A stretch of 64,000 nt of DNA from Escherichia coli (GTDB lineage Bacteria > Pseudomonadota > Gammaproteobacteria > Enterobacterales > Enterobacteriaceae), in the NCBI RefSeq assembly GCF_016026235.1, contig NZ_CP065613.1; one strand, 5' to 3'. The number at the start of each line of letters is the position of its first letter. Positions within the stretch are counted from its first letter, which is position 1. Shown here piece by piece: positions 38,001 through 44,000 of the stretch. The position numbers were made by a program.

Positions 38001-41000
38001 TGCTCCTGCTCGCTGCGGGAAAATCCTTCCGGCATTACCACGTCCTCACCGTAGACGGATTCAATAAGAAGCCGGGCTGCGTGTGGCATCTGAATAGCGC
38101 CTTGCCCACGCAGCACACGCTGCGTCAGCCAGATTCGCCCATGATCGGGGTAGACAAATGCACTGTTACGCATCGCACTGCCAAACCATTCATCACCCGG
38201 AGAGTCGTCCCAGACGGGTGCCAGAATCAGCAATTCAGGAGGGGAACGCTCGTCTTTTCCGTCACGCTTTAACTGACCATTAATATCGCGAATATGCCGC
38301 TGTAATCGCCCCGCTCGCTGGATTAGCAAATCAATGGGGGCCAGGTCGGAGATCATTTCGTCCATATCGCAATCAACGCTCTGCTCCAATACCTGAGTGC
38401 TAATAAGGACTTTTCCGGCACGCTGTGAGCTACCTTCTTTACCAAAGCGTGCCAGCGTTTCCGTTTCAATTCGCTGGCGATCGCTAAAAGCAAAGCGGCT
38501 ATGAAAAAGTGAAAGGCTGGAAGCAGGAATGACGCCGCGGGCAAGCAGCTGACGATAAACCTTAATAGCGTCATCGACAGAATTCCGGATCCAGGCGATG
38601 CATTTCCCCTGACTCACCGCCGATTCGATACGCGCAATACACTCTTGTTCGCTATGAAGCCAACCCACGCTCACGCTACGCTCAACGTCTTTGCGCGTCG
38701 CTACCCGGTGTGAATTCACATTGGATTTCGTAACGTGCGTCAGCCAGGGGTAATCATCCTTTTCAAGGAACGGAGCTTCTTGCTGGCCCTCTGTACCCCG
38801 CGCAAAGGCGGCGACGAGTTTGTCGCGCTGCTGTTGGGATAACGTAGCAGAAAGCAAAATGACGCTGTTTCCACCACGCGCCTGCCGCTCGATCAGCCCT
38901 TCAAGAATGCATGACATGTAAGCGTCACAGGCGTGGATCTCATCAGCCAGCAGGATTTTGTTACTCAGCCCCAGAAGCCGCAGATTATTATGTTTGAACG
39001 GCATCACCGCCATCATCGCCTGATCCAGCGTGCCGACGCCAATTTCAGCCAGTAAAGCCTTCTTGTTACTGTCGGCAAACCAGGCTGCACATCCTTGACT
39101 GAACGCTTGTTCATCCGGTTCTTCTGACCCGACTAAATCACCGGACCAGAGTGATTCATTAAAGCGGTCCATTAATGTACGGGCGCTGTGTGCCAGCACC
39201 AGGCTGGGGCGGGATTCTGGCGAATAGAAAGAAAGCCAGGTTTTGACCAGCCGATCGTACATGGCATCGGCCGTTGCCATTGTTGGCAGGCCAAAGCGCT
39301 TTACCCGCAGCCATCAACCTGTGCGCCAGGATAAGCGCCGCTTCTGTTTTACCTGCGCCAGTCACATCTTCCAGAATAAATAACTGTGGCCCTGGCTGGC
39401 TGATATCCAGATCCAGTACCTTTTGCTGTAATGGTGTCGAGTGCTCAATAAAAGGAAACAGCGTATTAATTCCGGTGAAAGGTGCGGTTTCTGCTTTTGG
39501 AGGAAAGACGGTTAAGGCGTTTTGTGCCTGAACTAAAGTTTTCTGCCAGTAATCTTTAATATTCATTGTCTGTGCGACGCGTGGAAAAAATCGCGTTGAC
39601 GAACCCGTCCAGTCTGCGAGTACGACTGTTGCAGAGATATACCAGGAAAGTTGTTTTAAAAGTTCAACGCCCTCGTCATCATCCCAGAATGTGGGAATCT
39701 CTATGAGCGGAAACAGTGCCTTGATTGCAAGGAGAAAATCTCGCGCGGCAGCTTTGTCTTCAGGCAGAAAATTATCCAGCTCATCAATACGGTCAGGTGG
39801 TCGACCATGATGCCCGGTAGTTATGGACATCCACATCTCTATTACACGTGTAAGTTTACGAGAAGAGAGTGAAGATGAAGGAAGCAACTCCTCACATTCA
39901 CTTAAATAATAATTCCACAGCCAGTAACCCAGCGTTGAATGAGAGATCTTTTCGTAATTCTTTCTGGAACCTTCCGGAATCTTGAGTTCAGGGGCCAGGT
40001 AAAGTTGCTGAAAAGAGCGGGCAAATTTTCCAATATCGTGCCAGCACAGCAACCAGGCGAAAAATTGAGCCGCCTGTTCCTTGTCAGAAATCCCTAATTG
40101 ACGAAAATAATCAGCCAGCCCGAAGCAATTTCTTTTAACCATTAAATAGCCCATCGCGGCTACATCCAGCGAATGCCAGCAAAGAAGGTGATAGTCGTCG
40201 CCCCCGTCTTTCTCGCCGCGTCGGGTTTTTCCCCAGAAATCAAAAAAAGTCACAATATTTTTATCCTTCAGTAAACTTAAAGGATATTTACGCATATATT
40301 AAAAATTATCTGTGATATATATCAGCCAATAAAACATTTATATTGTGAATAAATTTATGATTTTCATTTGAAATTCATAATAATAAATAGAGACAATATA
40401 TTCACATAAAAAATATAAATTTAAAAAAGGGTGCAGGAGACCAAACCATCACAATTCAATACGCGGGGTTTTACCCCTGAGGGATCCCCAGAAAATTTAG
40501 TAAACCATTATCATATTGGTATACCGTTGCTGTAGAACTTTCAGCCCTGCGTCAAGTGACAGTGTGTTTAGTATGAGTGGAGAATGTCGAATCACATTCT
40601 CCGCCAGTTTTAATAACGAGATGACTCGCCTGTGCTTCACTGTATTTGCCTGATATTTATGATGTATCCCTTTGTTTTCCAGGCTGAAACCGCTTAACCA
40701 CATAATGATACTGGCTAATGTTGCGATCAGACTCAATACCGTGACCCGCCCGGATGAATGACTGGCACCAAACCGTAGTCCAAATCCCCAGCGAGGATTT
40801 TTTTCATCCCTGAAATTTTGCTCAATTTGCATTCTACGGCTGTATAATTTCATTACCTGTTTTGGCGAGAACTCAGTACTGTTTGTGAAAATAAACCATG
40901 GTGATTTCCCGGCAGTACGAGCTTTAGCCGTCACCGATGGTCTGGTTGCTCTTTCCTTCGAGCGTTTAAATCTACGACCTTTAGGCTTACTTTTATAAAG

Positions 41001-44000
41001 ATAAAAATGCCCTTCATGTTGTGCATTTTTATCTCGACCCAGCAGGCCTTCACCTAAATAAATTGCTGTCGTTGATGCTTTTGTGCCTGAGTCCGACACC
41101 TTTTCCCAGCCATTACCAACATTGTAATAATGATTGCCCAGTACCCGGCAAATATAGGTCCAGCCACGGGAGCGGAGCTGTTGGAACCATCGCCCCTGAA
41201 AACCGGCATCTGTAATAACAATGACATCAGTCCCGGGGGAAAAGCACTCAGCAAGCGATTCCAGAAAACGCTCATGTACATCTGCATTCGCTGTCTGTGA
41301 TGATGGAACGACACAACTCATCAACGGTAAAGAACGCCCGTCACATGCCAGGCTTGCCCGCAAAAGCTGAAAACGAGAGGCATGATAAGCACTCCAGTCA
41401 ATGAGTATCACAACACGAGACATTCCCCGCGTAATCTTTTGGGTAATTCGCTGAAAAATGGTGGAAACCTCATTTTGCAAATGTCGATTCCCCAACAGTC
41501 GATCCACCCGCTTTATTTTGTTTTTAACTGATGCCGTACCGGTTAAATGACGCCCGATACTGGTAAGTGTGAGGGAAGCGCCATTTATTACAGCATTAGT
41601 TGCGTCAATCAGTGATTTTTGACGGTAAAGATGCAAAGGGGCCAGTATGTTGTTAAGGAAATTTTGGCATAATGAACGTGCAGGCATAGTGGTGATCTCC
41701 TTGAAATTGTTAGCACAATCAATTAGATCACATCTCACTATGCCTGTCTTGTTTTCTGGGGATTCCTCAGGGGCGATCCTCCAGTTCAAATATAAGGTCA
41801 GAACCTGCATGGTTTATATCAGACATCCCTTCACTCCTTTTAAAGTAAATTTGATCATCTGAATTAGTAAAATAAATTCCCACGAATTTGGGGCGCAGGA
41901 CGCCTTGAGAACGGCTTATCTCATTTTCGCAGTCACTATTTAGTCATCGTTCAAACAGAGAAACAGGCCGCCGAAGCGGCCATTTATTATTTATATTTTT
42001 TCCAGCGCAGTGAGTATTTTCTCCGGTGTGAAATGCCATTCGCGTAACCAGATGCCGCATGCATCGTGAATTGCGGTAGCAATCGCCGGAGCTGCGCCAT
42101 TTACACCGATTTCCGAGATCGATTTCGCCCCGAACGGGCCGACTTTATCGTCGCTCGGCACCAGCACAGCGCGGAAATCACGCGGAATGTCACCAATTTT
42201 CGGTGCGCCGTAACTGCGTAAATCACGCGTTAACGGGTGACCTTCGGCGTCATAAATGATCTCTTCGCTCATACTGTGGCCGATAGCACGCAGGGTGGCA
42301 CCGTAGATTTGTCCCAACGCTAACTCTGGATTGACCGGTGTACCGCAGTCCAGCAAGGCGTAGAATTTATCCAGGCGGATTTCACCCGTACGCGTGTTGA
42401 CGGCAACTTCAGCGAAGTTTGCGCCATACGGGAAAGCGAAATCAGGCGTGATATAACTGCCAGTTCCCACCAGTGAACCAAAGCCGGTGCCGGTTTCGCC
42501 TTTATGGGCAATATCCCCGAAACTAACTTCGCCTTTCTTGCCGCGCACGACGCCCGGCGTTGCTAGTTGAACATCTGCCACTGGCTCACCCAACATTTGC
42601 GCGCCGTGGAACAGAATTTTCTCCCGCAGATTTTCCGCTGCCAAACGCGCCGCGTTACCCGAGAAGCAAGTACCGGACGAGGCATATGCGCCTTTATCAA
42701 ACAACGCATGATCGGTATCACCGGAGATAACATGCACGTCCTGCGGTGGGCAGTGCAGCACTTCTGCTGCCAGTTTCGTCACTACAGTATCCAGACCAGT
42801 ACCAATATCCGCACCGCCAGAATGAACGATAAAGGTGCCGTCCGATTCCAGTTTGATCATGCAGTTAGCCTGATCGATATCCGGGATACCCGATTTCTGC
42901 ATGATAATGGCGACGCCGCGACCGATGTGCCAGTCACCATTTTGCGGTTTCGGTGAAGACCATTGGATCATCTCGCGACCCTGACGCAGGATCTCTTCCA
43001 GTGCGCAGCTGGCGGCGGAAGGAACGGAGGTCGGCGCTTTACCTTCACCGATTGCACCGAGAATTTTCAGCTCTTGCCCTTCGTGTACCCGGTTACGTTC
43101 GATAATTTCCAGTTGGTCGATCTGTAACTGTTCAGCCAGTTCCGCTAATGCCATGGTGATAGCGAAGTTACCTTTCGGTGCGCCATAACCCTGATAAGCA
43201 CCATTTGGGCAAATGTTGCTGTAGTAGGTGGTGACCTGGAAATCGACGTTATCGCACGGATATAACGGCAGCGACAGCGCCGGTCCGTTACATGGTACGG
43301 TGAGTGAGTGGTTGCCGTAAGGGCCAGTGTTGGCGCGGAAATCCATCTTCACTGCCGTCAGGCGACCATCTTTTTTCGCTCCCAGTTTGACGGTGACTTT
43401 CGCGACGTGACGAGAGGTGTTAGCAATAAACTCTTCTTCACGGGTGTAGCGGAACAGGACCGGACGCCCGGTCACGCAGGTTGCCCAGGCGCACACTTCT
43501 TCCAGCAGGATGTCCTGTTTGGAACCAAAACCGCCGCCAACTCGTTCTTTAATGACATGAACTTTATGCTGTTTCATGCCCACGAGGCGCGCGACCTGGC
43601 GGCGTAAGTGCCATGGTACCTGGGTGGAGGCGTGGATAACCAGACGATCGCCGTCCATACGAGTAAAGCAGATATGTGTTTCAGTCGGGCACTGCTGCGC
43701 TTGCGTTGAGTTATAGGTTCGCTCAATGATCACATCGGCATCGGCAAAGCCTTTGTCCATATCGCCAATATGACCATGAATACTGGCGGCGATATTTTTG
43801 CGTGGACGAGAACCGATCGGGAAGTTGATGATCATATGCTCGCCGCGCTGGGCTGCATGGCTGTTATCGTCTTCCAGAGTATCTGGCGCACCAGCAACAT
43901 ACACAACCGGTTCATCGTGCACGACAGGCGCATCTTCCGCCATTGCTTCGTCGATCGACATTACCGGTTTAAGCACTTCATATTCAACGTCGATGAGCTT

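Follow-up and report, generated by a model that had tools for sequence, protein, structure and literature searches.

The window analysed in this study is a stretch of 64,000 nucleotides from Escherichia coli (contig NZ_CP065613.1). An insertion sequence of 1294 bp was found at 40477..41770 on the minus strand, with the L end at 40477 and the R end at 41770, between the type I-E cas3 gene and a fragment of xanQ. Over its full length the element is 100% identical to copies annotated as "IS4-like element ISEc60 family transposase", and it shows no differences from the copies L003, L010, L025, L050, L051 and L057. Its sequence, transposase and termini are those of ISEc60 in the NCBI annotation of E. 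coli genomes and plasmids, and its transposase product is identical to WP_001111632.1. The element is ISEc60, a known E. coli insertion sequence of the IS4 family with IS10-type CTGAGG ends, of which incidental mentions only were found in the literature.

The terminal inverted repeats are CTGAGGGATCCCCAGAAAA at the L end (40477..40495, plus strand) and CTGAGGAATCCCCAGAAAA at the R end (41752..41770, minus strand). They match at 18 of 19 positions, with one mismatch of the R end to the L end, and bound the element from CTGAGG to CCTCAG. The 19-nt core CTGAGGGATCCCCAGAAAA has only two sites in the window, both of them element termini, with none expected by chance. The first-pass annotation had placed an IS10-like element at 40474-41773. 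Its 22-nt arms (40474-40495 and 41752-41773) are 95% complementary, so the near-identical termini stand, but the outermost CCC/GGG of the arms are target DNA and the span is shortened to 40477-41770. The likeness to IS10 holds for the CTGAGG ends and the size, and not for the identity of the element.

A single DDE transposase gene of 396 aa, as had been described, is encoded at 40497..41687 on the minus strand and is also called there in the source assembly. The product matches NF033591 (transpos_IS4_2, IS4 family) with 360 bits (cut-off 152, E = 8.6e-108) and carries PF01609 on record. Its best named relatives outside ISEc60 are IS10A/ISVsa5, with 36% identity across 93% of the length. A 437-aa ORF reaching 41810 was rejected as the transposase gene since it extends beyond the element end.

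The arrangement at this junction, named J1, is cas3, the element from L to R, the 5' fragment of xanQ, and xdhD. The cas3 start codon at 40295 (minus strand) lies 181 bp from the element, in agreement with the earlier description of the element as immediately upstream of cas3. The AT-rich upstream and promoter region (40296..40476, minus strand) is intact between the element and cas3, and it is identical to the uninterrupted site of EC2641 up to the insertion point. The cas3 gene itself (37607..40295, minus strand) is a pseudogene in the window strain, disrupted by an 11-bp deletion near 39296, scored against the intact 899-aa cas3 of GCA_901482675.2; the two resulting ORFs match the HD and the helicase parts of Cas3, respectively. 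About 20 draft genomes of the lineage have this frameshift as well. A meaningful effect of ISEc60 on cas3 expression was rejected because cas3 keeps its native upstream region and carries a frameshift. The cas7 gene is likewise a pseudogene in this strain. The CRISPR array was missed by Tandem Repeats Finder and detected by a direct-repeat search.

On the other side, the element severs xanQ, leaving a 5' fragment of its first 56 nt (MSDINHAGSDLIFELEDR..) at 41771..41826 on the minus strand; the annotation of FDAARGOS_943 shows xanQ interrupted at the same point. The xdhD gene (41991..44861, minus strand; TIGR03313, 2123 bits) follows as the first complete gene of the inverted 126-kb segment. 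A sign change of the GC skew was observed near the element.

Target duplications and mapping of the flanks

The 9 bp to the left of the element read gttttaccc, and those to its right gggcgatcc. These 9-bp flanks are unrelated, as the first reading had it, and no direct repeat surrounds the window copy under any end assignment, the corrected ends included. The expectation that simple transposition leaves a direct repeat is borne out by the ordinary copies, though its length is not strictly 9 bp. Ten insertions among the other full-length copies examined have a perfect direct repeat of 10-11 bp when the ends are taken as CTGAGG..CCTCAG, or 9-10 bp if the G that invariably follows the right end is assigned to the element. 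In one more copy the repeat is broken by a single-base indel, and three further copies, located at deletion junctions, are without a repeat. The missing repeat at the window copy is meaningful because ten other examined insertions have perfect ones.

Each flank of the window copy can be recognized as half of a different target duplication. The left flank, GGGTTTTACCC (40466..40476, plus strand), is one half of the duplication at the cas3/hok site, which is empty in EC2641 and reads acgcGGGGTTTTACCCCCgcg there; GGGTTTTACCC comprises one arm and the loop of a hairpin downstream of a hok-family gene. The other half adjoins the ISEc60 R end beside hok in the source contig, in FDAARGOS_943 and in GCA_031665325.1. 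The right flank, the 10-bp GGGCGATCCT (41771..41780, plus strand), is half of the xanQ-site duplication, and it flanks the xanQ copy of ISEc60 on both sides in FDAARGOS_943 and in L025/L026. Palindromic targets of the form GGG(N4-5)CCC appear to be preferred by ISEc60.

In collinear E. coli, the cas3 and xanQ flank sites lie about 137-166 kb apart in opposite relative orientation, and sites both distant and oppositely oriented constitute the signature of an inversion. In the collinear PapM-32-1, window position 40477 falls at 1,076,154 (minus strand) and 41771 at 909,610 (plus strand). The opposite relative orientation of the two flanks was likewise found in FDAARGOS_943, with 99.9% identity across 22 kb for the right flank and 99.955% for the left flank (window 20280-31284). 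Judged from these identities, both flanks belong to the FDAARGOS_943 lineage. According to the first-pass annotation, flanks universal in related genomes would speak against a rearrangement. Neither the junction of cas3 with ISEc60 nor the cas3-element-xanQ arrangement was found in any of 5426 complete E. coli genomes, and neither window junction has a match in the species-representative genome collection.

The reciprocal junction and the parental insertions

The window matches exactly to contig UGFA01000002.1 of GCA_900449985.1, the source contig, which also carries the reciprocal junction, J2. It is located at about 3.745 Mb, 125.8 kb from J1, with ISEc60 in inverted orientation (L068). J2 reads cysJ-cysI-cysH-hok, then CGCGGGGGTAAAACCC directly followed by CTGAGGAATCC, and supplies the half of the A-site (cas3/hok) duplication that J1 lacks. 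It had been proposed to inspect other copies for the reciprocal half of a duplication; this half was found here, on the same contig, where the R end of ISEc60 adjoins GGGTTTTACCCCCGCG, followed by hok and cysH.

The J2 copy has been truncated by an IS4 element, with positions 1-534 of ISEc60 gone. The truncation is accompanied by a 9.2-kb deletion, with an IS4 element at its junction beside lysS. The missing genes run from the remainder of xanQ up to and including idi, and part of the ygc region is also deleted in the source contig. The xanQ-side half of the B-site (xanQ) duplication was removed by the deletion in the source, which leaves the A-site half as the one visible at J2. The joint of truncated ISEc60 and IS4, seen in L010, predicts a chimeric ORF of 234 aa, and a query with this ORF retrieved the J2 contig.

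Both junctions recur in further assemblies. J1 is present in GCA_014155105.1 with 99.987% identity across 15.5 kb and identical junctions, and J2 in GCA_031665325.1 with 99.9% identity across 17 kb.

We further found both parental insertions in relatives. Parent B is represented by FDAARGOS_943, in which the order is the rest of xanQ, the element, and the 5' part of xanQ, a plain insertion with GGGCGATCCT on both sides; the xanQ site with its repeat is also present in L025 and L026. Parent A is represented by GCA_901482675.2, in which the element lies between cas3 and hok with its own direct repeat, shifted by 1 bp relative to the window. The junction of the R end with hok is present in FDAARGOS_943 as well, with the cas3 side of copy A lost. 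No genome with both parental insertions intact and junctions exactly as in the window was found among sequenced genomes. The ISEc60 copies are identical in sequence, the only difference, at position 768, being private to the xanQ copy of FDAARGOS_943. The crossover point cannot be mapped because of this identity.

Origin of the rearrangement

The ISEc60 copy in the window marks one end of a 126-kb chromosomal inversion, very probably made by homologous recombination between two inverted copies of the element. The first-pass annotation had read the missing duplication as the result of recombination between two copies, making this a rearrangement junction; the distant flanks, the parental insertions and the reciprocal half-site all agree with that reading. 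The ancestor would have been an ISEc60-rich E. coli lineage with two ordinary insertions in inverted orientation. Copy A would have lain between cysH and cas3, inside the hairpin that immediately follows the hok-family gene on its downstream side, and copy B would have interrupted xanQ at its codon 19. Exchange between these two 1.3-kb copies by RecA-type homologous recombination would then have flipped the interval, which measures 125,773 bp in the source contig, so that each copy ended up with one A and one B flank. The window copy would thus be the recombinant at J1: its ends and its transposase gene are intact, and it has no direct repeat because its two flanks derive from different copies. 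The partner junction J2 would originally have joined the rest of xanQ, the element from L to R, and hok-cysH, and the truncation of its ISEc60 copy and the deletion with IS4 at the joint would have come later. Production of inversions by recombination between inverted repeats is an established rule (PMC8072062).

The end product, with the element between a and b and again between b and a, cannot be distinguished by junction sequence alone from that of a one-step inversion driven by the transposase, in which a single copy upstream of cas3 attacks xanQ, by a replicative or one-ended reaction, and is itself duplicated. The strong target preference of ISEc60 would suit such an attack, and xanQ behaves like a preferred target, since the same insertion is also found in assemblies that share only 98.7% flank identity with the window. 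However, the IS4-family elements studied so far (IS10, IS50 and IS231A) transpose by cut-and-paste (PMC2266710), and elements of this kind make no replicative inversions. FDAARGOS_943, the closest relative (99.9%), moreover has a plain xanQ copy. A pre-existing copy B is the simpler account because this copy is a plain insertion with the repeat and the orientation required. The one-step route is therefore improbable, and we infer homologous recombination rather than a transposase reaction as the exchange, together with the order of events given above.

It is less probable still that an assembler swapped the flanks of two inverted 1.3-kb repeat copies on a chromosome that was never inverted. 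ISEc60 is indeed a multi-copy element, with at least 38 matching places on the FDAARGOS_943 chromosome; in short-read drafts of this clone (L005, L006, L087-L090) the contigs end precisely at the element, and the evidence consists of assembled contigs. However, the 4.56-Mb source contig carries both junctions consistently, and independent contigs of 4.68 Mb (2 mismatches in 15.5 kb) and 3.45 Mb show J1 and J2, respectively. The ISEc60 copy at J2 is also truncated and joined to IS4 and lysS, which a flank swap of a full-length repeat cannot produce. A plain insertion whose duplication was missed through misassigned ends or later mutated away can be dismissed, for although the 22-nt arms first described include 3 target-derived bases and the usual duplication is 10-11 bp instead of 9, no end assignment gives a repeat and the flanks map to different loci, which other E. 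coli have at a distance of 137-166 kb; this mapping already refutes it.

Comparison with known systems and consequences for the strain

The ends of IS10 also begin CTGAG.GATCCCC. Members of the IS10 subgroup of the IS4 family are 1200-1350 bp long, have ends beginning with CT and generate a 9-bp duplication (PMC2266710). With 1294 bp, ends starting 5'-CT, a single DDE transposase ORF and a symmetric target preference, ISEc60 resembles this subgroup. It may differ in the duplication, which is 10-11 bp (9-10 bp if the flanking G belongs to the element), and differs in its transposase, with only 36% identity to that of IS10A, and in the target motif GGG(N4-5)CCC, which is not the IS10 hot-spot consensus. 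Ordinary ISEc60 copies have a direct repeat, whereas the window copy, as a probable recombinant of two copies, does not.

IS26, of the IS6 family, produces inversions by intramolecular replicative transposition, leaving one copy at either end of the inverted interval and dividing the target duplication between the two copies. The inversion described here has the same appearance, an IS at each end and a split duplication. In contrast to the replicative IS26, ISEc60 belongs to a cut-and-paste family, and the second copy is present as a plain insertion in a relative.

A parallel in kind is provided by the inversions of Shigella and other IS-rich E. coli lineages, in which recombination between inverted IS copies turns the interval around and the resulting hybrid copies lack matching duplications. 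From 414 genomes, 114 inversions were reconstructed, with IS elements at the adjacencies (PMC8072062). Here the element is ISEc60 instead of IS1, IS600 or similar, and the interval is a modest 126 kb within one arm. The event is already known in kind; it is of the textbook type, ordinary in an IS-rich E. coli lineage, and adds nothing new on genome remodelling by IS elements. It serves as a worked example in which an insertion sequence with intact ends and no target duplication denotes a true breakpoint, with the reciprocal half-site in the same genome.

Across related genomes, the copy upstream of cas3 is found as a simple insertion, at the inversion, and at a 9.2-kb CRISPR-cas deletion. We tentatively suggest that the choice of GGG(N4-5)CCC targets may draw ISEc60 to hairpins resembling terminators and to CRISPR repeat edges, and that the copy upstream of cas3 might be a recurrent breakpoint of CRISPR-Cas rearrangement and loss; this is possible, though rather less probable than not.

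For the strain itself, the 126-kb block from xdhD to cysH is inverted within one chromosome arm, parting cysJIH from the cas operon. The xanQ gene is destroyed, and the follow-up deletion removed guaD through idi. The immediate upstream context of cas3, a pseudogene in any case, is unchanged by the inversion.

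Identity, ends and targets of the element

The insertion sequence upstream of cas3 is 100% identical to many ISEc60 copies annotated at NCBI. Its inverted arms, with outer limits at 40474 and 41773, are 22 nt long and 95% complementary, and the 19-nt arm core CTGAGGGATCCCCAGAAAA occurs twice in the 64 kb, both times at the arms, with 0 occurrences expected by chance. Comparison with other ISEc60 copies revealed that the three outermost bases of each arm (left CCC, right GGG) derive from the target. The element proper is confined to 40477-41770 (1294 bp, CTGAGG...CCTCAG ends). 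Its sole gene, at 40497-41687 on the minus strand, encodes a 396-aa IS4-family DDE transposase, which reaches 360 bits against NF033591 (cut-off 152) and for which PF01609 is recorded; the single DDE gene and inverted termini described earlier were thus confirmed. A 437-aa ORF running to 41810 was rejected as the transposase gene because it extends beyond the element end.

Members of the IS10 subgroup are defined by CT ends, a length of 1200-1350 bp and repeats of 9 bp (PMC2266710). Since the ISEc60 transposase shares only 36% identity with those of IS10A and ISVsa5, and the element matches ISEc60 completely, the earlier label "IS10-like" suits its ends and its subgroup only, with ISEc60 as the proper name. 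With the ends taken at CTGAGG..CCTCAG, 10 other ISEc60 insertions on chromosomes and plasmids are flanked by perfect repeats 10 or 11 bp long rather than the 9 bp of the subgroup, and at an eleventh a one-base indel disrupts the repeat. The base following the right end is G at every copy examined, so the true element may be 1295 bp with repeats of 9-10 bp. Because ordinary copies carry repeats, the absence of a target-site duplication at the window copy, noticed in the first reading and confirmed here, is an exception requiring explanation, whichever end assignment is used.

The target sites of ISEc60 are for the most part GGG(N4-5)CCC palindromes, as seen in FDAARGOS_943 (L001), GCA_901482675.2 (L012) and further loci (L002, L050-L057). 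Of seven reconstructed target sites, five fold into strong hairpins whose loop receives the insertion (z-scores -2.4 to -4.5), and some copies are located at the edges of CRISPR repeats. At the second array, near ygcE, ISEc60 adjoins a CRISPR repeat (..CCCCGCTGGCGCGGGGAACTCGC|) in FDAARGOS_943 (L003, minus strand position 360) and GCA_031665325.1 (L010, minus strand position 20756), sharing the flank and lying in opposite orientations.

Flanks of the window copy and parental insertions

The left flank consists of the AT-rich upstream region of cas3, followed by type I-E cas3, casA and the remaining genes of the cas operon, which are all encoded on the minus strand. The right flank starts with the first 56 nt of xanQ (MSDINHAGSDLIFELEDR), on the minus strand, and continues into xdhD, ygfM and ssnA. 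The uninterrupted cas3 site of E. coli EC2641 reads acgcGGGGTTTTACCCCCgcg and leads into a hok-family gene, cysH, cysI and cysJ. In the collinear genome PapM-32-1, the counterpart of window position 40477 is 1,076,154 (minus strand) and that of 41771 is 909,610 (plus strand). These loci, 166 kb apart in PapM-32-1 and 137 kb in FDAARGOS_943, meet head to head in the window, an arrangement that is the signature of an inversion and not of a deletion. The cas3|ISEc60 joint was absent from all 5426 complete E. coli genomes searched. Across 36000-52000, GC skew is about -0.04 to -0.07 left of the element and +0.03 to +0.05 from about 44 kb onward; a sign change there fits a recent strand switch and does not separate the explanations.

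The closest complete genome is FDAARGOS_943, with 99.9% identity over 22 kb right of the element and 99.955% on the left (window 20280-31284). It carries ISEc60 in xanQ (copy B) at exactly the same position, with xanQ on both sides and GGGCGATCCT repeated. Another of its copies, corresponding to the insertion between cas3 and hok/cysH (copy A; L003 11007-12300), lies in the opposite orientation to the xanQ copy; the right end adjoins GGGTTTTACCCCCGCG-hok-cysH, and the other end borders on the iap-proximal terminal CRISPR repeat. The entire CRISPR array and cas operon, 9.2 kb equivalent to window 31285-40476, are deleted there. In GCA_901482675.2 (L012 5748, L032 3190), ISEc60 forms a plain insertion between cas3 and hok (cas3|ISEc60|hok); its own repeat is offset by one base from that of the window lineage (GGGGTTTTACC versus GGGTTTTACCC), owing either to homopolymer errors or to a separate insertion into this hairpin. 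Related genomes thus show copy A in three states: as a plain insertion, at an inversion junction and at the junction of a CRISPR-cas deletion. ISEc60 occupies the identical position in xanQ, with unchanged joints and repeat, in assemblies (L025, L026, L029 and L030) whose xdhD flank shares only 98.7% identity with the window, which suggests that the site is a preferred target or that local recombination has occurred.

Reciprocal junction and origin of the window copy

The window matches exactly contig UGFA01000002.1 (4.56 Mb) of GCA_900449985.1. In GCA_031665325.1 (L010 14759-16980), the hok-side ISEc60 is truncated at position 535 by IS4, followed by lysS. By means of a predicted chimeric 234-aa ORF spanning this truncated-ISEc60/IS4 joint, the reciprocal junction at hok-cysH (J2) was located on UGFA01000002.1, within 3,734,053-3,754,757. 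Its order is cysJ-cysI-cysH-hok, CGCGGGGGTAAAACCC|CTGAGGAATCC (the ISEc60 right end), ISEc60 from 1294 down to 535, and IS4 (ISEc60 and IS4 joint, L068 9918-12103). The IS4 (1426 bp) directly adjoins the lysS 3' region, with the sequence resuming 35 bp beyond the stop codon of lysS. The reciprocal half-duplication that the first-pass annotation proposed to look for was found for the cas3 side: GGGTTTTACCC, the missing half, adjoins this other copy on the same contig, which is in inverted orientation. A segment of 125,773 bp, at 3,744,841-3,870,613, separates it from the junction in the window and is the inverted one. The deletion beside IS4 took positions 1-534 of ISEc60 together with some 9.2 kb of chromosomal DNA, namely the rest of xanQ, guaD, ghxQ, ygfS, ygfT, uacT and idi, so the xanQ-side half of the second duplication is no longer visible.

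The same ISEc60(535-1294)/IS4 joint occurs in 5-kb Logan contigs from other samples (L069-L072), 99.5% identical to the UGFA01000002.1 version. The DNA beyond both ends differs, with an IS110-family transposase on one side; either IS4 hit that position repeatedly or the joint itself is the repeated unit.

On these comparisons, the best account of the window copy is homologous recombination between two inverted ISEc60 copies, which would invert the segment between them, with J2 decaying afterwards. The flank loci, the parental insertions in relatives and the half-duplication at J2 support the earlier reading of the copy as a rearrangement junction formed by recombination between two copies. Recombination of inverted repeats routinely yields inversions, and many such events are described in IS-rich E. 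coli and Shigella lineages (PMC8072062); the event is a known kind of phenomenon involving a known element. No crossover can be mapped because the ISEc60 copies are identical in sequence. A one-step inversion driven by the transposase would leave the same joints, but is disfavoured because the IS4-family elements so far studied move by cut-and-paste (PMC2266710) and the nearest relative, FDAARGOS_943, has the xanQ copy as a plain insertion. An assembly error is unlikely, as GCA_014155105.1 contains the window junction in an independent contig of 4.68 Mb, where the joints are identical and 15.5 kb differ by 2 mismatches, J2 is present at 99.9% identity across 17 kb in a GCA_031665325.1 contig of 3.45 Mb, and the truncated ISEc60/IS4/lysS structure is not producible by swapping repeat flanks. 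In about 20 short-read assemblies with the same frameshifted cas3, contigs break off at the element's left end or shortly before it.

CRISPR-Cas decay and further lesions in the lineage

The CRISPR-Cas system of the window strain is decaying. Compared with the intact 899-aa gene in GCA_901482675.2, cas3 (37607-40295, minus strand) lacks 11 bp near 39296, a deletion that breaks it into two ORFs, and its exact 378-aa N-terminal product is common to about 20 assemblies. The cas7 ORF (34782-35399, within 34347-35399, minus strand) stops after 205 codons, compared with 357 in relatives; the DNA aligns in frame with them to the end, which implies a premature stop, and also has an in-frame 18-bp deletion. 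The type I-E array between iap and cas2 (31306-31648) is short, with six repeats of CGGTTTATCCCCGCTGGCGCGGGGAACAC at 61-bp spacing, and was not detected by Tandem Repeats Finder.

A further ISEc60 copy in the ygcU/ygcN region (L010 6803-8096; L068 1962-3255) has no direct repeat and only one flank in common with a plain insertion of GCA_901482675.2, which indicates an additional IS-associated deletion in the lineage. In FDAARGOS_943, xdhD is also interrupted by an IS5-family element (L001 8113-8957) and rpoS is annotated as frameshifted (L003 1-888), lesions that fit a lineage gaining IS copies and pseudogenes.
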